Assembly (NCBI GenBank): GCA_964472605.1
Contig: CAYYLG010000001.1
Span: 11,119 to 66,160, forward strand
Reading direction: 5' to 3'
From: an uncultured Candidatus Saccharibacteria bacterium
Lineage (GTDB): Bacteria; Patescibacteriota; Minisyncoccia; Phycocordibacterales; CAIZIN01
DNA length: 55,042 nucleotides
Shown here: in pieces, positions 3,989-14,861 of the stretch
Numbering within the stretch: the stretch's first letter is position 1
How the letters are laid out: every line of letters starts with the position of its first letter
Notes under the pieces: generated by a model
Told to the model about the DNA's origin: nothing
Seen by the model: the letters and a program-made list of their open reading frames with translations, nothing else
Databases searched by the model: none
Position numbers and translations under genes: made by a program

Positions 3989-6084
3989 TAAGCAAAAGAA
4001 ATGATTTTACTGGTAGGCGTGGTGTTGTCAGTAGACACAAAGTGTGGACTGATAAAAAAGCTATCCAGGAATTAATCAATAGTTTTTCATCTGAAGTTAA
4101 AGTTCTTCGTCCTTGGCAACAGAAGGCTTATAAAGTATATTCAGAAATGGATTGCAGACATTTTAGAATTCGTGCTTCTACTGGAAGTGGAAAAACTCTT
4201 CTTGCTAAAGCATTAATACTTAAATATTTGGAAGATAATCCGAACTGTATAGCTATTGTATCAGTTCCTCTTCTTGCTGTTTCATTTGGTTTTACAAAAA
4301 AAGAATCATTTAAGCTTGATAAAAATACTATAAATATTAATAGTCTAATCCCGAGAAAAGAACATAATTTTGCAGCAGCAGAAGAATATGTTGGATGCGA
4401 TAGTAAAATGAAAGATTTTGAAAGGGCTATTAAAAGCAGGACCGGTGTGGCTGCTAAGAATAGAACTTTTATTATTAGTCATGCCATTCTTTCAAAATTA
4501 GATCCAAAAAAATTAGAAAATTGTTTACTTATAGTGGATGAAGTTCATCATTCACTTGCTGTAGACAATAATATTTGTAATGGTATTGGAAAAAGAATTT
4601 CTTATTGCTGTGAAAAGGCAGAAGAAAAAAATATTGCAATGATTCATTTGACTGCCACACCAATTAGGGCAGATGGTGGATCTCTTGTCCCTGAAAAATA
4701 TGATAAAGATTTTAAATGTTTTGATCTTTACACCAATGATCACTTATATGAAAATTGTGCTGGAATGAGTTTTACATATGATTATTTTTTTCATGAAGGT
4801 GATTATCTTGGTGAAAACGGAGCCATTTCTAAGTTTTATAGTTATGAAAAACTTCCTCCTACAATTATTATTTTTCCACATACAAGTAGTACAAAATATG
4901 CCCCCTTTATCAAAGATAAAGAAATGTGGGTTAGAAAATCTATTGAAGCTATTGTTGGAAGAAAAATTTCAACAAAGAAAATATATACTAAAAAAGATGG
5001 AAAAGATAACAATCCTGATGTTCATGTGGATGAAGATGGAGTGATGAATATTCACAATGGTAAAAGGAATATTAGAATTGTTGATCTTTTAAACGGAGAA
5101 GGAGAAAATCAAAAACGAAGAAAAAAACTAACATCTTGGGTTTCTGACAGAAAAAATGGAGATACTGTTGATGTTGTTCTTGGCATGATGATTCCAAGGG
5201 AGGGATTTGATTGGGAAAGGGCAAGCAGGCTTATCCTTATTGGATATCAAAGTTCTCTTGTTCAAGTTCTCCAAATTATTGGTAGATTATTTAGGTTTCA
5301 TGAAGAAAAACTAGCAAATGGAAACATTGTTCAAATGTGTCAACTTTTCCCTTTTGTTGATCCTAAAAAATTAAAAGTAAACGAAATGGATTCAAAAGTT
5401 GGAGATTTTATGAATACTATTTTAATGTCAATGGTTATTGAAGCTATTTTTTCACCTCCAAACATTATTTATAAAATGAAAGGAAAGGAGAATAAAAAAA
5501 TACAAAAAAATAATGTTATGACTATTTTTATCAATAAGATTGGTGAAAGTAAAGCAATTTCAATTATCAACAAGTGCTTTTTAGAAGTTCTTATTGTAAA
5601 AAATATGTTTGCTCATAAAACAGAAACAGAAAAAACATCTATTCTTAAAAAAAGATTGTTTCAAATTCTTGGCGATCATAATGTCCCTACTGATTTAAAA
5701 GAACTAATGGTGGACTGTGTTGTTCAAATTGATAAAAATAGATCTTTTAATTCAAAAAAGATTATTTCTCCTAAACCAGGAATGGATGTCTCTGATCTTG
5801 AAGATATAGATACATTAAATAAGGTTATTTCTGGTGAGTGGGTAGAGCACTATTCAAATACGACTGACATAAAACTTCTTGATAGAATTCAAATAAGACT
5901 TACAAAAAGTAGGAATATGTTTAAATATCGTGAAATGAAAAAATGGTTTGATGCACATGGTAAAAGAAGACCCAATTCCAAATCTTCTGATCCAGAAGAG
6001 GCAAAACATGGAAAATTTTATGATTATATTTTAAAAAAGGAAAAGCAATCTCAAAGAAGAGGAGAGGAGTTCATTTTAAGATGA
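3982..6084 (+). CDS. SF2 DEAD/DEAH-box (Res-like) helicase
   Basis: Motif I ASTGSGKT, motif II LIVDEVHH, motif III LTATPIR, motif VI QIIGRLFR. Confidence 0.8.
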   Translation: MLISKRNDFTGRRGVVSRHKVWTDKKAIQELINSFSSEVKVLRPWQQKAYKVYSEMDCRHFRIRASTGSGKTLLAKALILKYLEDNPNCIAIVSVPLLAVSFGFTKKESFKLDKNTININSLIPRKEHNFAAAEEYVGCDSKMKDFERAIKSRTGVAAKNRTFIISHAILSKLDPKKLENCLLIVDEVHHSLAVDNNICNGIGKRISYCCEKAEEKNIAMIHLTATPIRADGGSLVPEKYDKDFKCFDLYTNDHLYENCAGMSFTYDYFFHEGDYLGENGAISKFYSYEKLPPTIIIFPHTSSTKYAPFIKDKEMWVRKSIEAIVGRKISTKKIYTKKDGKDNNPDVHVDEDGVMNIHNGKRNIRIVDLLNGEGENQKRRKKLTSWVSDRKNGDTVDVVLGMMIPREGFDWERASRLILIGYQSSLVQVLQIIGRLFRFHEEKLANGNIVQMCQLFPFVDPKKLKVNEMDSKVGDFMNTILMSMVIEAIFSPPNIIYKMKGKENKKIQKNNVMTIFINKIGESKAISIINKCFLEVLIVKNMFAHKTETEKTSILKKRLFQILGDHNVPTDLKELMVDCVVQIDKNRSFNSKKIISPKPGMDVSDLEDIDTLNKVISGEWVEHYSNTTDIKLLDRIQIRLTKSRNMFKYREMKKWFDAHGKRRPNSKSSDPEEAKHGKFYDYILKKEKQSQRRGEEFILR

Positions 6085-6953
6085 TTACTAAATCTATTAT
6101 TGAAGAGGATTTTCCTTGTATTTCACAAGACTGGCTTTATAGTCTTGATAAAACTTGGTATTTATATTTAGAAAGACTAAAACATATATTAAAACAAAAT
6201 GAAAATAAGATTCCTTCTGTTCATTCAAAAAATGAAGAAGAACGAATAGTAGCAGCATGGTGTAATAATCAAAGACAAAAAAGAAAAAAGGGAATTCTTT
6301 CCCAAGAAAAAATTAATATTCTTAATAATATTGATGCTTGGTATTGGGAAACCGAAGATTTTTATAATAAATGGAAAAAAACTTATGAAGAAGTAAGTAA
6401 TTTTTTGAAATTAAATAAAAGAAATCCATCTATTACTTCTAAGAATCTTGATGAAGTAAGAATTGCAACTTGGTGTCATCGTCAAAGGGCTTTAAAAAAA
6501 AAGTATGATGATATTTCTAGAAAAAATAGAGGGATAATGGATCAAAATAGAATAAATCTTCTTGAAAAATTGCCAGGATGGACTTGGGCATTAGAAGATA
6601 AATGGGATATTAATTTTGAAAAATTTAAAAAAGTAGTTGAAGAAAAAAAGAGACTTCCGATGAAGGGTGAGCACCTTTATAATTGGATGCAAACTCAGAA
6701 AAAAGCTTATGTAGGAAAGGGACAGGGCGCTTATATTGATGAGTATAGAAAGAGTAAGTTAGAGTCAATTAAAGAATGGATTTGGTGTAATAAAAAAATT
6801 GTATGGAAAAACTTAGATACAAATAAAGAATTTATGTCTTCTAAAGATGCTGCTGAATCTGTTGGTATTAAATACCCAAATATAATTCTTGCAGCAAAAA
6901 ATGGTAGAAAAGCAGGTGGTTATCGTTGGGCTCGAATAGAAGTGGCCGAATAA
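6081..6953 (+). CDS. protein with three helicase-associated (HA) repeats and a C-terminal NUMOD/IENR-like HTH
   Basis: Three repeats follow the pattern W..Y..L......P........W...QR....G.L......LL....W.W. The C-terminus FMSSKDAAESVGIKYPNIILAAKNGRKAGGYRW parallels the end of ORF 1993-3294. Confidence 0.65.
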   Translation: MITKSIIEEDFPCISQDWLYSLDKTWYLYLERLKHILKQNENKIPSVHSKNEEERIVAAWCNNQRQKRKKGILSQEKINILNNIDAWYWETEDFYNKWKKTYEEVSNFLKLNKRNPSITSKNLDEVRIATWCHRQRALKKKYDDISRKNRGIMDQNRINLLEKLPGWTWALEDKWDINFEKFKKVVEEKKRLPMKGEHLYNWMQTQKKAYVGKGQGAYIDEYRKSKLESIKEWIWCNKKIVWKNLDTNKEFMSSKDAAESVGIKYPNIILAAKNGRKAGGYRWARIEVAE

Positions 6954-7987: not shown

Positions 7988-8521
7988 ATGAAAAATAATT
8001 TTATTTATCAAGTAATCACTGATCCATCAGAAATTACATATGATATGTATCGATCATTTATTAAGCTCTCTTTTAGGGAAAAGGGAACAATGATTGATTC
8101 ATTAAATATGATTCTTGAAGATGCCAAAATTAACTCATTTTATTATAGAAAAAGGGCAGTAAAGTTTGGTTACTATAAAAATAAAAGAAGATTAGTTGTA
8201 ATCGTTCTTGTTAAAGAACGTGAAACCAAGCAAATAGTTGGTTGGACTTTACTTTTTGAAAAGTTAAATTTAAAAGGTGACGTTTACAAATCAAGAATAA
8301 TTTCAGGAAATGTATATGTAAAAGCTAGTTTTAGAAGGATAGGTCTTGGTACAAACTTAATAAAAAAATCTTTAACGTCTTGTAAAGATAAGAAAAAAGT
8401 TGTTCGTTTCTTTTCTCATGATAAACAATCAAGATCATTTCTATGTAGAAATGTATTACCGAAAAGTAATTTCAATATCGAGTATGGTGATTTTGTTTCT
8501 TATGATTTTACAAAATCCTAA
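7988..8521 (+). CDS. GNAT-family N-acetyltransferase-like
   Basis: Motif A-like segment VYVKASFRRIGLGTNLIKKSL. Confidence 0.5.
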   Translation: MKNNFIYQVITDPSEITYDMYRSFIKLSFREKGTMIDSLNMILEDAKINSFYYRKRAVKFGYYKNKRRLVVIVLVKERETKQIVGWTLLFEKLNLKGDVYKSRIISGNVYVKASFRRIGLGTNLIKKSLTSCKDKKKVVRFFSHDKQSRSFLCRNVLPKSNFNIEYGDFVSYDFTKS

Positions 8522-8549
8522 TTCTGCATTTTAATAATTAAGGTGAAAA

Positions 8550-8795
8550 ATGAGAGAAATTTTAGTACTGTATCCAGGATCTTCTTATGAAGAAACTATC
8601 ATGGCAGAAAACATAAGAGATGCTCGCCGTATTCTTAAAGAAAAGAATAATGGCAAGTCTGTTCCTAAAGGAACGGAGTTTCGATATGTAAATACTAATT
8701 ATATCTTTCCACCAAAAGATAAAAAACTTACAGAAAAACAAACTAAAAATACAGAAATAGCAAAGTCTTATCCTGGTTTATTTTCAGTCAAATGA
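8550..8795 (+). CDS. hypothetical protein (81 aa)
   Basis: AAGGTGA lies upstream of the ATG, and the ORF is tightly packed against its neighbours. Confidence 0.55.
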   Translation: MREILVLYPGSSYEETIMAENIRDARRILKEKNNGKSVPKGTEFRYVNTNYIFPPKDKKLTEKQTKNTEIAKSYPGLFSVK

Positions 8796-9268
8796 TAGAC
8801 ATGGAACCAATGTTCGAAAAAGACACTTATTATGATGAATTTCATTATAAAGTTGTTATAGATAATTCTTGTTCTGACGAAATAAAAGAAATCTGTATTA
8901 AATATTGGGATATTAAAGCAACCATGCCATATACCATATGGATTTATCAAATTAAAGAAATATGTTCTGATTATAATATTAATAGAAATAAATTATGGTC
9001 TATAGTAAAAGAAAATTCTTATGCCTATTTAAGGAAATGTAAACAATGCAAAGGTCCAATGGAAAAGTTTTATCTTAGAACACAAATTAATACCATGATG
9101 GAACGTAGAGATAATAGAAGAGTCTGCGATACCTGTAAAAGTTTAAATAAAGTTAAAGATCGTAAAATGGACTTTGTAGAATTTGAAATGATTGATAACT
9201 TTCAAAGAGAAGAAGTAAAATCTTTTGAACCAACATTTGGAAACAGAATAGATAATTTAGAATTATGA
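8792..9268 (+). CDS. hypothetical zinc-ribbon protein; C-terminal ...DNLEL tail
   Basis: ATGA overlap with the upstream gene. Contains CKQC...CDTC. Ends in the D-h-h-E-h tail shared by about 10 proteins. Confidence 0.6.
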   Translation: MIDMEPMFEKDTYYDEFHYKVVIDNSCSDEIKEICIKYWDIKATMPYTIWIYQIKEICSDYNINRNKLWSIVKENSYAYLRKCKQCKGPMEKFYLRTQINTMMERRDNRRVCDTCKSLNKVKDRKMDFVEFEMIDNFQREEVKSFEPTFGNRIDNLEL

Positions 9269-9271
9269 ATA

Positions 9272-9309
9272 TGGCCTAATTGATTGAACTAGTAAGTGTC
9301 GTGTATTAC
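9272..9309 (+). promoter_or_regulatory. promoter, TGGCCAA-N-TTGAC class (variant)
   Basis: TGGCCTA 9272-9278, TTGAAC 9284-9289, TATTAC 9304-9309. Confidence 0.4.
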
Positions 9310-9344
9310 AACGGTTTCATTGAGTTGAACGAAAGGAAATAAAA

Positions 9345-9869
9345 ATGGACATTAAAGGAATCACACTTGGTAAAGCGCTTCGTTTGCGTTCTACTGTAGC
9401 AAATAAGATTGCCACTGCCTCTGCTCGTGCAAGACAAACTGCGATTAGTCTTAGCACTGATCCGAAGCCTGATTTTGATGTAAAAGAACAGCTTAAAATT
9501 TTTACAGACGAACAGAGAAATCTTCGTGAACTTAAAGTCAAGACTACAGCGAAGTCTTTGAATACAAAAGTTCTTATTCCTGAAGACATTCCAGTTGATG
9601 AAGCTGGTAAAGAAGTTCCGGTGTATTGCGCCGTTCTTATTCGAGACGATCTCAAGGCTCGTAAAAAGCTTTTGGATGAACTTATTGCAATGCCAGTAAG
9701 TGTTGATCGTTATGAGTATTATGATACTTCTGAAGGACAGGAGCGTCCAGTAAAGAAAAGAAACTTTAGTTTTGAAGAAGCTATCGCTACTTCAGAATTG
9801 CTTCAGGAATCAATTGATACCATTGACGGTATTATTCAGGGAACTGATGCTACTGTGAAGTTTGAGTAA
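9345..9869 (+). CDS. hypothetical protein (174 aa), GC-richer, possibly highly expressed
   Basis: AAAGGAAA lies upstream of the ATG. Codon composition differs from the neighbours. No family recognised. Confidence 0.65.
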   Translation: MDIKGITLGKALRLRSTVANKIATASARARQTAISLSTDPKPDFDVKEQLKIFTDEQRNLRELKVKTTAKSLNTKVLIPEDIPVDEAGKEVPVYCAVLIRDDLKARKKLLDELIAMPVSVDRYEYYDTSEGQERPVKKRNFSFEEAIATSELLQESIDTIDGIIQGTDATVKFE

Positions 9870-9870
9870 T

Positions 9871-10120
9871 CTCTTCGGAGGTTGCTCAAAGCGGGCGTTG
9901 AAGTTGTGTCTGCCTCTCTAAAAGGCAAGGAATAGCCAGTTAAGCTATGGTCCTATTACAATTCGAAATGGGTGAGAATTATTTAGCACATGGATAAACT
10001 CACCACACGGATGCATAGGGAACTGTGCAAATGGAATCAGGGCACTGGGCACTCATGAACACAATTCAACGTTTCCGTGGGGATGGGAAGGTTGAGCCCT
10101 TGGGTTCCCTTCCCTCCCTA
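9871..10120 (+). ncRNA. structured intergenic RNA of unknown class
   Basis: There is no ORF and the region is visibly GC-richer. A 13-bp long-range helix forms between 9896-9909 and 10059-10071 (one bulged G) and encloses several hairpins: 9911-9927, 9928-9954, 9971-10006. A UUCG hairpin lies at 9871-9880. A 12-bp GC-rich hairpin lies at 10085-10114. Confidence 0.5.
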
Positions 10121-10143
10121 AATCTTCTTGGGAAAGACAGACA

Positions 10144-11181
10144 ATGAATCAAGAGTCATGTCCTACATGTGATTACCCTCTTGAAGGGGGAGTCTGTCTT
10201 CTTTGTGAAGAAGAGTCTCAAAAAAGAAAAGAAATAGATAAGTATTTGACTAATTCTCTAAAGAAGAGAATGGTTTCAGATTATGCTCTTCCAATTACAG
10301 TTTTTGAAGAACCTCATTTCTCATATCAAAGAGGATTGTATTCTCTTCGTTATGGTGTGGATCTAATTATTTCTTGCTTAATTGAAGAAATTAAAAAACA
10401 TGGTGGTGAAGATCAGTTTTTTCAGTGGGAAGCATCCGTAAGAAAAGCAGTTATTGATAAAATTCAAGAAAAAGAATCATATAAAAAGTTTAATTCTCAA
10501 GCTTTACCCCAAATCAAATTTGAAGTCTTTGATAGGCTTTATATTCAGCCAAACCATGATTGTATTTTTGTTTCATTTGACATGGTTAAAGCAAACTTTC
10601 AAGCTTTACGTCATTTTGACCCCGACATCTTTGATAACCAAAATAATTGGCCTGAATATTTAAGTCAATTTAGTACATCAATGTATTTGATGGGGTCTAA
10701 AAGATTTAGACAAATCATATTTGGAAATTTAAATCCAAAAAGACAACAAGCTTATCAAAAGGTATTAATTTCTAAAGTTCTTTCAATTGTAGAAAGATTT
10801 GATTTGGGAGAAGTGTGCTTTACAAGTCCAGATGAATTTGTTGTTAAAGTAAATCCAACTGGATTGGAAGAAAAGCTTTCTCTTATTAAAGAAACCATAG
10901 ACAAAGAAACTGGACTTAAAATTAGAGTTACACAATTTAAATTAAAACAGCTTAAACCATTTTCGTACTTTGTAAAAGTACAAGATACAGATAGTGTAAT
11001 TGATCGTTTAGACATAAAGTGTGTTCCCAGTGTATTTTTTGCACAAGCCTTTAAGAGAGCTTACAGTTTGTATCAACCAGAGTTCCCGGGAATTCCTTTT
11101 GATATAATATACCAAGACTTAGCCTTTTACTTTGAGAAAAGACTAGCTTATTTTGAAAAATCTTTGGAATTCATTAATTAA
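10144..11181 (+). CDS. hypothetical protein with N-terminal zinc ribbon (345 aa)
   Basis: N-terminal CPTCDYPLEGGVCLLC. No family recognised. Confidence 0.65.
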   Translation: MNQESCPTCDYPLEGGVCLLCEEESQKRKEIDKYLTNSLKKRMVSDYALPITVFEEPHFSYQRGLYSLRYGVDLIISCLIEEIKKHGGEDQFFQWEASVRKAVIDKIQEKESYKKFNSQALPQIKFEVFDRLYIQPNHDCIFVSFDMVKANFQALRHFDPDIFDNQNNWPEYLSQFSTSMYLMGSKRFRQIIFGNLNPKRQQAYQKVLISKVLSIVERFDLGEVCFTSPDEFVVKVNPTGLEEKLSLIKETIDKETGLKIRVTQFKLKQLKPFSYFVKVQDTDSVIDRLDIKCVPSVFFAQAFKRAYSLYQPEFPGIPFDIIYQDLAFYFEKRLAYFEKSLEFIN

Positions 11182-11193
11182 TAGGAGAACAAA

Positions 11194-11619
11194 ATGAGCA
11201 GAGAATTGATTTTAGTTTTTATTGGAATATTTATATTTATAGCTGGTATAGTACATTTGTATTTGCAATTTATTAAACGATCTGGCAATCCAGATTTTTC
11301 TGAATTTTCAATATTAAAAGGCAGTCTGCTCGAAGCATTTCTTCTTTGTGTTACTCTTGTATTTTATTATTTTTTATTTTTTGTAAATAATGAAAATAAG
11401 AATATAGTAAGACAAGATCCTCCAGTAGAAAGTTTTTCAACCATTCAACATTTCAATAATGTTTCTGATGAAAAAACAGATGAAGAATTGGCTAAAGATG
11501 CTGAAGCAAAAAAACATTCTTTATTAAAAGATGTTGAACGAGAAGGCGCTGAAAAAGAACGTCAAGAAGCAAATGACTATATTAATAGTGCTCTTAAAAG
11601 AGCAGAATCCTCAAACTAA
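11194..11619 (+). CDS. membrane protein (2 TM) with charged C-terminal tail; possible NfeD-like partner of the SPFH gene
   Basis: TAGGAG lies upstream of the ATG. Two hydrophobic segments are present. It sits immediately upstream of the SPFH gene. Confidence 0.55.
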   Translation: MSRELILVFIGIFIFIAGIVHLYLQFIKRSGNPDFSEFSILKGSLLEAFLLCVTLVFYYFLFFVNNENKNIVRQDPPVESFSTIQHFNNVSDEKTDEELAKDAEAKKHSLLKDVEREGAEKERQEANDYINSALKRAESSN

Positions 11620-12547: not shown

Positions 12548-12605
12548 AAGGTAAAAAAGAAAAAGGATAAAATTCCTGTCTTTGGGTAGTGTATAATTAC
12601 ATTGT

Positions 12606-12683
12606 TGCGGGGTGGAGCAGTCCGGTTAGCTCGGGTGGCTCATAACCACCAGGTCGAGGGTTCAAATCCCTCCCCCGCTACCA
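12606..12683 (+). tRNA. tRNA-Met (CAU), initiator-like
   Basis: Aligns almost base-for-base with E. coli tRNA-fMet as I recall it. Features: 1:72 mismatch (U:U), A11:U24, anticodon loop CTCATAA, T-loop TTCAAAT, encoded CCA. Only 2 of the 3 G:C pairs in the anticodon stem are present. Confidence 0.85.
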
Positions 12684-12738
12684 GAGATATCTCCTTAAAA
12701 ACCTCTCAGAGTGATGATTGAAGTTTTTAAGGGTTTAG

Positions 12739-12775
12739 CCCCCGACAGTCACTCCTCTCGGGGGTATATTTATTT
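12739..12775 (+). terminator. rho-independent terminator after tRNA-Met
   Basis: CCCCCGA...TCGGGGG stem followed by TATATTTATTT. An additional 10-bp hairpin CCTTAAAAAC/GTTTTTAAGG lies just upstream. Confidence 0.6.
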
Positions 12776-12776
12776 C

Positions 12777-12819
12777 TGGCCAATATCTATTGATAACAAT
12801 TCTTGTCGTAGACTTTAAT
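12777..12819 (+). promoter_or_regulatory. promoter, TGGCCAA-N-TTGAC class
   Basis: TGGCCAA 12777-12783, TTGATA 12790-12795, TTTAAT 12814-12819. Confidence 0.45.
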
Positions 12820-12856
12820 AGCTTCAGTTGTTTATAAATAGGAGAATTTAAAAATA

Positions 12857-13994: not shown

Positions 13995-13995
13995 A

Positions 13996-14013
13996 TGGCC
14001 AATTAGTTTGACT
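13996..14013 (+). promoter_or_regulatory. promoter motif, TGGCCAA-N-TTGAC class
   Basis: TGGCCAA 13996-14002 and TTGACT 14008-14013. The -10 element is unclear. Confidence 0.4.
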
Positions 14014-14143
14014 TGTGAGGCTAGAATGCGCTGTAAAGAAGGCTATAAAAGGGATAAATCAGATAGTCCCCGAATAGGAAAATGGTTAAAATTTTATTTC
14101 CTCAAAAGAACTTGTAGGAAAAAATCATTGAAGGAGAAAGAAT

Positions 14144-14861
14144 ATGAAAAAGAACAAAGATAAATCCTGGAGGTGTCTTTGACACCATTCAAATTTTGAT
14201 CCAACCCGGAGAGGGTGGAAAAGATTCTCAGTTATTTGCTGAAGATCTTTCTAGCATGTATCAAAAACATGCAAAGAGACATGGGCATGAAGCTCGAATA
14301 GTCTCTAGTACGACCAAACAAATTCAATTAGAGGTCGTTGGTAAAAATCCTTGAAGAGCATTCCGGTTTGAAGCCGGACTTCATAGAGTACAAAGAGTTC
14401 CTCCAACTGAAAAGGGTGGTAGAACTCATACTTCTATTATAACCGTAATTGTTCTTAAACAAAAAGAACAAAAGCCAATTGAAATTGATAAAAAAAATGT
14501 CGTAGTAAGTTACTACAAAGATTCCGGCGCTGGTGGCCAGCATAGAAATAAAACAATGTCTGGTGTTCGGTTACAATATTCAGGTATAACTATTGAATGT
14601 TGTGATACAAGAGATCAGAGAAAAAATAAAGAAATAGCCTTCGAGCGTTTGGAAGAAAAACTTAAGCAAAGGGAGCTTGGAATTGAAAGAGAAAAAAAAG
14701 AAAGAGAAATGTCCAAGCAAAATCCCAATTGTGGTAAGCGTGGAAATTTCTTAAGGAACTACAACTACATGAGAGATGAAGTTTCACAAGACGGTAACAA
14801 ATATAAGCTCTCTCAATTTTTGAGAGGAAATCTGGAGAAGCTTTATGGTGAAGCCGTCTAA
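14144..14861 (+). CDS. class-I peptide chain release factor, N-terminally truncated; needs a +1 frameshift at 14177-14183 and decoding/readthrough of in-frame TGA 14352-14354
   Basis: Assembled as join(14144..14179,14181..14861). Motifs: QPGEGGKDSQLFAEDL, GLHRVQRVPPTEKGGRTHTS (RF1-type PxT), SGAGGQHRNKT (GGQ), RDQRKNKE, RNYNY. AAGGAG lies upstream of the ATG. Confidence 0.75.
14169..14183 (+). promoter_or_regulatory. prfB-type programmed +1 frameshift cassette
   Basis: GGAGG-TGT-CTT-TGA-C has the same architecture as the E. coli prfB site AGGGGG-TAT-CTT-TGA-C: an internal SD, a 3-nt spacer, then CUU UGA C. Confidence 0.75.

Follow-up and report, generated by a model that had tools for sequence, protein, structure and literature searches.

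The RNA and the genes around it

We analysed a stretch of DNA of 55,042 nucleotides (nt), here called the window, which covers positions 11,119 to 66,160 of contig CAYYLG010000001.1 (assembly GCA_964472605.1, an uncultured Candidatus Saccharibacteria bacterium). Between the open reading frame (ORF) at 9345-9869 and the ORF at 10144-11181 lies a gap of 274 nt (9870-10143) that contains no + strand ORF of at least 60 amino acids (aa). The upstream ORF (+ strand) encodes a 174-aa DUF6847/DIP1984-like protein. At 9861-10119 of the + strand, reaching back into the end of this gene, we find a real and conserved structured RNA of ~260 nt that belongs to no catalogued family, and a gene of the same type lies directly upstream of the RNA in 9/9 loci.

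The content of guanine and cytosine (GC) in the gap is 46-50%, compared to 24-33% in the AT-rich genes of 8000-9300 and 10200-11600, in agreement with the initial annotation of this DNA, which had described the region as richer in GC than its surroundings; the upstream gene itself is already at 38-40%. That annotation had also taken the gap for the longest one free of ORFs, which proved incorrect, as 721-1398, 12548-12856 and 13995-14555 are longer by the same measure. These longer gaps contain a transfer-messenger RNA (tmRNA) with an intron, a transfer RNA (tRNA) and a recoded release-factor gene. When folded, the + strand of the gap reached a minimum free energy of -96.8 kcal/mol (z = -3.7), and none of 200 dinucleotide shuffles was as low. 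The minus strand gave a nearly equal value (z = -3.5), and therefore the choice of strand is not set by folding energy alone.

No known family could be assigned by eye in the initial annotation, and a search with Rfam 15 (4227 models; a match being a gathering score or E <0.01) bears this out: no model reached its gathering score in 9870-10143, and the best E value within 9700-10300 was 0.3, from unrelated small nucleolar RNA models. The copies of the RNA at loci L007, L015, L019, L021 and L165, introduced below, did not match any Rfam 15 model either.

The fold is conserved in nine copies

The RNA was compared in nine distinct copies, namely the window and loci L005, L007, L015, L017, L019, L020, L021 and L165. 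They stem from metagenomic and viral contigs (L165 is a 147-kilobase (kb) IMG/VR contig, whereas the contig of L020 is 998 nt long). All nine copies share one plan: a hairpin P1 over or just past the stop codon of the upstream gene, a long closing helix P2 that begins immediately after P1, a variable region P3, a hairpin P4, the sequence CACACG, a tract of 7-nt units (heptads), the 3' strand of P2 and, directly after its final UUCCGU, a 3' hairpin P6.

In a curated full-length alignment of the seven close copies we obtained 41 consensus pairs, of which 88% of the cells are paired and 24/41 show a compensatory change. The same alignment has 35 G-U cells and 6 A-C cells, indicating that the RNA is on the + strand. 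A model-based alignment of all nine copies, covering P4 and P6, had 90.7% of its cells paired compared to 72% in shuffles, and 13/16 pairs changed on both sides, a number reached by 0/500 shuffles; controls in which the alignment was slid paired at 43-61%. The direction of the covariation result is clear. In addition, a covariance model of the 3' domain (R1) recovered L165, on which it had not been trained, with 49.9 bits (E = 1.5e-8). The spacings and helices of the RNA persist while the flanking proteins have diverged to 36-65% (upstream) and 45-50% (downstream) identity. The initial annotation had favoured a structured non-coding RNA over a simple terminator and had named a lack of covariation in homologous regions as the finding that would speak against it; the covariation is present in both alignments, and the proposal is supported. 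It had missed the link to the upstream DUF6847-like gene, the period-7 tract and the run of U that follows the 3' hairpin in relatives.

The same results make it very improbable that the region is a DNA-level element (an origin, iterons or a recombination site), a degenerate intron or another mobile insertion. Short repeats and an elevated GC content are features of some DNA sites, and a group I intron and homing-endonuclease genes are present elsewhere in the window. However, the compensatory changes and the excess of G-U over A-C cells fit an RNA on one strand, and the element is a single copy in the assembly, as judged by a search with R1. As to an intron, the group I model RF00028 gave no match even at E = 10, whereas the window's intron (1068-1309) scores 109 bits with this library. 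No exon is interrupted, since the upstream ORF ends at a conserved ...FE-stop in eight closer copies; the downstream gene differs. The pair U9867-G9884 is U-A in L005 and L007, meaning that a U-G splice-site pair is not conserved.

Helices and hairpins of the RNA

P1 is a hairpin of 13 base pairs (bp), 9861-9873 with 9878-9890 (+ strand), that is seen in the folds and whose UUCG loop occupies 9874-9877. This hairpin is longer than the one noticed in the initial annotation, and its stem takes in the stop codon of the upstream gene (9867-9869) together with the two sense codons before it. Across the curated alignment 5/12 of its pairs show a compensatory change, and in L005 the pair GAG/CUC is replaced by GAA/UUC. 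The last codons of the upstream gene, AAG UUU GAG, are identical at their synonymous sites in 5/8 closer copies. This identity, together with the L005 GAA that is compensated within P1, suggests that the end of the coding sequence is constrained by the RNA structure.

The closing helix P2 pairs 9891-9909 with 10059-10078 (+ strand), and the 13-bp helix described earlier (9896-9909 with 10059-10071) forms its core. Its length ranges from 17 to 25 bp across the copies. An equivalent duplex is found in 9/9 copies, with energies of -14.7 to -26.0 kcal/mol that 0/300 shuffles match in each copy, and ACGGGAUGU/ACAUUCCGU of the window is exchanged for ACGAAAUGU/ACAUUUCGU in L005. In the 3' strand (10059-10078), whose final UUCCGU adjoins P6, the alignments show UUCCGUGG to be conserved.

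Within P2, the hairpins P3a (9911-9927) and P3b (9928-9954), both seen in folds of the + strand, are the variable part: the hairpins of this region differ in number and length among the copies and also in their stem sequences (e.g. CCCU/AGGG, UAGC/GCUA and GUGC/GCAC). The junction UUACAAUUC (9956-9964, + strand) precedes P4, and its AAUUC-AAA is conserved in the alignment. P4 (9971-10004, + strand) pairs GGUGAG (9971-9976) with CUCACC (9999-10004) around an interior with the conserved GCACNNGG (9986-9993); all of its pairs (6/6) change on both sides across the 9 copies. The distance from GCAC to CACACG is fixed at 18 nt in the seven close copies.

P6 (10079-10119 of the + strand; 10079-10091 with 10108-10119) is a GC-rich 3' hairpin whose 5' strand carries the purine run GGGGAUGGGAAGG and whose inner part is the 3' hairpin noted previously (10085-10114). 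In the model-made alignment 7/10 of its pairs change on both sides. P6 is followed at once by a U-run in L165, L019 and L005; in L007, L015 and L020 a spacer of 4-5 nt (UAAA or UGAA) comes first. In the window there is no such run behind the hairpin, as the initial annotation had pointed out, and the terminator scan calls no terminator. P6 is the probable 3' end of the RNA, and because of the U-run behind it in the relatives it probably doubles as the terminator.

We consider it improbable that the whole element is nothing else than a transcription terminator and a stabilising 3' structure of the upstream messenger RNA (mRNA). P6 does look like a terminator in the relatives, and the overlap of P1 with the stop codon implies that the element belongs to the 3' end of the mRNA. 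However, one hairpin suffices for a terminator, whereas here the fixed spacings of 18 and 39 nt (the latter across the heptads), the conserved unpaired blocks and the covarying inner helices persist despite the divergence of the two flanking proteins.

A tract of 7-nt units

Between P4 and the 3' strand of P2 lies the heptad tract (10015-10050, + strand), which in the window consists of five 7-nt units: AUAGGGA, ACUGUGC, AAAUGGA, AUCAGGG+C and ACUGGGC. The consensus unit is A-Y-U-N-N-G-N and the tract ends in ACUGGG. The last ACUGGG lies 39 nt from CACACG in six copies, at 40 nt in the window and at 32 nt in L005, whose tract is exactly one 7-nt unit shorter. When the units were stacked, the information was 0.63 bits per position at period 7, compared to 0.13-0.27 at periods 5, 6, 8 and 9; shuffles gave 0.08, and 0/2000 of them reached the observed value. 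Identity at a lag of 7 nt is 0.40-0.57 in the relatives. Units within one RNA tend to be alike (ACUUUG four times in L021, ACUCUG twice in L019, ACUAGG twice in L015). An alignment-based fold of the tract revealed no shared helix except a weak one of 3 bp. No second such heptad array was found on the contig.

The pattern of three ACUNNGN units followed by ACUGGG was also found in genome contigs (L168-L247), where most matches were to tandem arrays of heptamers in cyanobacteria (Nostoc, Dolichospermum, Desmonostoc and others). Such arrays presumably correspond to the short tandemly repeated sequences already known and have no relation to the gap RNA.

Possible alternative pairings

The sequence ACAAUUC occurs twice in the window's RNA, in the junction (9956-9964) and in the 3' strand of P2 (10061-10069). 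Positions 9900-9908 (GAAGUUGUG) could therefore pair with 9956-9964 as an alternative to the 3' strand of P2. In L007 and L015 a similar choice of pairing is seen, GAAUUAU with AUAAUUC versus GUUGAAUU with AAUUUAAC. The duplicate may reflect an alternative fold or may have arisen by chance in A/U-rich sequence. The purine run in the 5' strand of P6 is complementary to a conserved pyrimidine motif (UCCUUC, UCUCC or CCUCUCU). This motif is located at 9914-9920 of the window, at 2781-2789 of L007 and in the 5' variable region of L015, L017, L020 and L021, and could form a pseudoknot or act as an antiterminator, although no covariation was found for it in either role. For partners of GCACNNGG, AAUUC and the pyrimidine motif in a pseudoknot, no consistent covariation was seen by eye.

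These pairings bear on the possibility that the region is a cis-acting attenuator in the 3' untranslated region (UTR) or intergenic space, in which the DUF6847 protein or another factor on the heptads would decide between termination at P6 and read-through, similarly to HutP or TRAP. P6 abuts the 3' strand of P2 and resembles a terminator in the relatives, with its U-run in L165, L019 and L005; 9900-9908 could pair with either of two partners, and the pyrimidine motif could pair with the purine strand of P6. The order of a regulator gene, periodic sites, a terminator and more genes resembles that of hutP and the hut terminator (PMC2425495). Nevertheless, we regard such an attenuator as unlikely. 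The P6 of the window lacks the U-run, no antiterminator covariation was found and purine and pyrimidine runs pair promiscuously. Moreover, an RNA of ~260 nt with four covarying helices exceeds what the known protein-dependent attenuators need.

The RNA follows the upstream gene and not the downstream one

We then compared the genes on both sides of the RNA. In 9/9 copies the RNA follows a DUF6847-like gene on the same strand. The gene downstream encodes a zinc-ribbon protein of 313-345 aa in three copies and other proteins of 82-172 aa in five (121-123 aa, 82 aa and 172 aa), while in L020 the RNA is present and no downstream gene is called on the 998-nt contig. Two of the loci with homologues of the 345-aa protein (L005 and L007, 45-50% identity) still have a gap, of 264-274 nt and containing conserved blocks, whereas the distant homologues at L009, L010, L012 and L013 have no gap and a different upstream gene. 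Conversely, behind the homologues of the 174-aa protein at L015, L017, L019, L021, L165 and L020 the RNA follows directly, whatever gene comes next. Thus, the conserved unit is the upstream gene plus the RNA. A riboswitch or leader of the downstream gene was rejected, because the downstream genes differ and the distant 345-aa homologues are without the RNA. The attenuator also loses ground here, as downstream genes that are unrelated among the loci imply no common regulated target.

The downstream protein of the window (10144-11181, 345 aa) has an N-terminal CxxC...CxxC zinc ribbon. No match to it was obtained in Pfam, PHROG or PADLOC. Of 5.8 billion clusters only 17 are relatives, and several of these come from contigs 100-360 kb long. 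Near one distant 345-aa homologue a TnpB-like gene (OrfB_IS605, Cas12f1-like_TNB) was found (L014:6504-7002); it is absent from the near-identical L013.

The DUF6847-like protein

The 174-aa protein of the window has no Pfam match of its own, as it falls below the Pfam threshold. A profile search with its family returned 25 clusters among 1.8 billion representatives, and 18 of the 27 aligned family members match PF20935 (DUF6847; best E 1.5e-10). The AlphaFold model consists of a four-helix bundle and a beta hairpin (mean predicted local distance difference test (pLDDT) 78), and its top match in the PDB is 3KDQ, the DIP1984 protein (probability 1.00, template modelling (TM) score 0.55-0.62). 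The protein has many invariant Arg and Lys residues.

Modelled in four copies, the protein had a self-association score of 0.75, compared to 0.01 for the best control; the mark for self-association is reached by 20/30 proteins that were solved as same-chain pairs and by 1/23 solved as single chains. At least 77% of the contacts agreed among the runs, and the pLDDT of the partner was at least 83. This modelling supports the self-association of the DUF6847-like protein, although the score may stem from the model's knowledge of a relative, 3KDQ, because that structure was solved with several chains.

PADLOC found no match for the 174-aa protein, the 345-aa protein or two relatives. A literature search for DUF6847 or DIP1984 did not find either term; all that it returned were genome surveys in which the annotation label 'septicolysin' appears. 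We found the gene-RNA pair described in no publication.

Genomic setting and distribution

The window is part of a 120-kb contig in an assembly of 0.7 megabases. This contig carries homing endonucleases and an RNA ligase, its genes are nearly all on one strand, and the neighbourhood of the RNA contains a tmRNA split by a group I intron, a tRNA-like RNA, a tRNA-Met, a release factor, an RNA ligase and a Thg1-like gene. The contig is likely a large phage, as judged from the IMG/VR relative L165, from its homing endonucleases and RNA ligase, from the layout of its genes on one strand and from the absence from related genomes; the Pfam models Terminase_6N and Phage_capsid found nothing in the assembly. 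Translation RNAs are near the cassette in relatives, too: a tmRNA, a group I intron, a weak tmRNA-like match (possibly a tRNA-like RNA) and a tRNA (L015:710-1075; L007:16-242, 1189-1355 and 6033-6107). In L015 a release-factor gene lies ~1.1 kb downstream. Translation and RNA-repair genes in the neighbourhood give a hint of RNA metabolism, but no more than a hint.

The cassette was not found in the ~700 related genomes searched. A blastn search of the gap against 60 related genomes returned the window's own copy alone, the A5 profile had no match in 400 genomes of the class and PF20935 none in 300 genomes of the phylum. The DNA of 9300-10700 had no match in the phage collection, and scans of viral contigs for close relatives of either flanking protein found none. 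Scans of viral, metagenome and genome contigs with the profiles A3 and A5 added L165 as the sole new locus. A tblastn search with P0036 found nothing in plasmids and phages, and P0048 has no close relatives. Two DNA patterns gave 139 loci in viral contigs, and R1 matched 0/99 of those scanned. Among the sequencing runs listed as containing this DNA none is of RNA, and the contigs of four runs that contain part of it showed identical fragments only, with no informative variants in the RNA.

DUF6847 loci of Bacillota

Finally, we asked what lies behind DUF6847 genes in Bacillota. PF20935 matches were present in 15/301 Bacillota genomes (17 matches, one of them a fragment), which leaves 16 full-length loci. 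In 14/16 of these (L288-L301, genomes G754-G1027) the motif GAGGG[UC]GGG occurs on the same strand 165-246 nt past the stop codon, where ~0.003 occurrences per locus are expected by chance, as does the near-invariant GUGAGGG[UC]GGGnnnGGGGA. Two tandem second DUF6847 copies (L303 and L304) are without GAGGG[UC]GGG. The motif is preceded by UACUACC and by a tract of period 7, whose signal (0.19 bits versus 0.08-0.09 at other periods) is weaker than in the phage clade. Units in L297 and L298, such as ACUGUGU and ACUGGGU, have the same A-Y-U-N-N-G-N form as those of the phage clade. The segment immediately before the motif can pair with the 60 nt that begin behind the stop codon (0-19/200 shuffles match), and this complementarity fits a closing helix. 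The purine run after this closing helix has no complementary strand following it in Bacillota, whereas in the phage clade it is the 5' strand of P6. Rfam models did not match in 13 of the DUF6847-linked Bacillota loci.

With both groups in hand, we can weigh whether the RNA is a stable molecule independent of the DUF6847 protein, such as a host-factor decoy or sponge or a ribozyme, that is merely co-transcribed with the gene. The end hairpins P1 and P6, the strong structure and the conserved unpaired AAUUC-AAA, GCACNNGG and CACACG would suit such an RNA, and the phage has other unusual RNAs (the intron-split tmRNA and the tRNA-like RNA). However, one protein family is linked to it in 9/9 phage-type loci, an unannotated, conserved RNA-like region lies behind the gene in 14/16 Bacillota loci, and no known ribozyme or sponge family matched. 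Strict linkage of this kind is hard to explain unless RNA and protein are functionally tied, and we therefore regard an independent RNA as quite unlikely.

A possible protein-RNA pair

The explanation that we favour, tentatively and somewhat short of calling it probable, is that the RNA is the partner of the DUF6847 protein in a putative protein-RNA pair of an undescribed class, in which the heptads would serve as a docking rail. The attenuator is the chief rival to this partner-RNA reading. In the mechanism that we envisage from the sequences and models, the RNA would be produced along with the mRNA of the upstream gene or immediately behind it. P1 and P6 would cap its two ends, and P2 would hold the core together and present the heptad tract. 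Self-associating copies of the four-helix bundle would then dock on successive heptads, with one binding surface per 7 nt, so that protein copies and RNA form a defined ribonucleoprotein.

Several observations weigh against a protein-RNA pair of this kind. The protein is mildly acidic (isoelectric point ~5.5), which is atypical of RNA binders. The tract of the window is the most degenerate one, with a lag-7 identity of 0.33 and one extra base. Ensembles computed from single sequences pair 47-69% of the tract bases, no less than the rest of the RNA, and a single-stranded rail is therefore not supported by the partition functions. There are only nine copies and these are mutually related, and thus the shuffle controls overstate significance. 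Also, no significant link joins the phage-type RNA to the Bacillota RNAs (R1, E at least 1.4; best nhmmer E = 0.18), although the best nhmmer match, itself non-significant, was on the right strand and within the L298 tract.

A wider claim is possible, and we advance it with still greater reserve: that DUF6847/DIP1984 proteins and heptad RNAs make up a widespread, undescribed class of ribonucleoprotein in bacteria and large phages, in which a self-associating protein with a helical bundle would read the RNA rail with one contact per 7 nt, and that the phage copy would act on host or phage RNA metabolism during infection. If the partner-RNA reading is true, it would be a first clue to the function of a protein family whose crystal structure dates from 2009 and to which no role has yet been assigned. 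It would also add an RNA class absent from Rfam and an unusual mode of recognition, a phased 7-nt rail within a folded scaffold. The cassette is small (gene and RNA together ~800 bp), and its presence in large phages with tmRNA, tRNA-like RNA, release factor and RNA-repair enzymes suggests a role in a contest over translation or RNA integrity.

Comparison with known systems

We compared the pair with known RNAs and protein-RNA systems. Signal recognition particle (SRP) RNA, 6S RNA and RNase P RNA were rejected: the RNase P RNA lies elsewhere (C18), and the SRP and 6S models find nothing in the assembly. The idea of a core cellular RNA was dropped because the region is not conserved in genomes of the same genus. 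An RNA of a type III toxin-antitoxin system (ToxI-like) was rejected as well, since the units here are 7 nt and not ~36 nt long, the RNA is downstream of the gene and PADLOC has no match. The orphan RNA motifs in Rfam that take their names from neighbouring DUF genes are likewise folds derived by comparison, with an association to a gene and a function that is unknown, and none of the 4227 models matches the RNA or the DUF6847-linked regions of Bacillota at E up to 0.01.

Bacterial Y RNAs with Ro60/Rsr, and the omega RNAs of IscB/IsrB, are RNAs of 100-300 nt that lie beside the gene of their partner protein and move together with it. The RNA of the window differs from Y RNA and HEARO in that their Rfam models give no match and those RNAs have no counterpart of the heptad tract. 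Ro60, RuvC and HNH domains were not found in the neighbouring proteins.

At least three short motifs at a fixed period are the mark of HutP- and TRAP-type sites, and the heptad tract has them. A Pfam scan found no HutP or TRAP domain in the neighbouring protein. TRAP sites in the Bacillus trp leader are 11 G/UAG triplets around a ring of 11 subunits. The likeness is in a row of short units at even spacing, where every unit is presumed to be contacted by a single subunit of a repeated protein; TRAP sites, in contrast, have a period of 5-6 nt, the protein is a beta-sheet ring that attenuates one operon, and there is no homology of RNA or protein.

HutP recognises UAGNNNNUAGNNNNUAG with a period of 7 in the hut terminator RNA of Bacillus subtilis (PMC2425495). 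The two systems share motifs at 7-nt spacing that lie behind the gene of the regulator and beside a hairpin, a terminator in hut and terminator-like in the relatives here, and HutP reads them as a homo-oligomer (PMC2425495). They differ in that the motif here is A-Y-U-N-N-G-N and not NAG, and in that at least five units lie inside a 260-nt RNA closed by a long helix. Furthermore, the protein encoded upstream here has the DUF6847 four-helix-bundle fold and is not HutP, the loci share no downstream operon, and docking on the units is only inferred. With respect to the DIP1984/DUF6847 family itself (3KDQ, from Corynebacterium diphtheriae), the window's own protein is below the Pfam threshold; the upstream gene nevertheless belongs to this family both by profile (18/27) and by fold.

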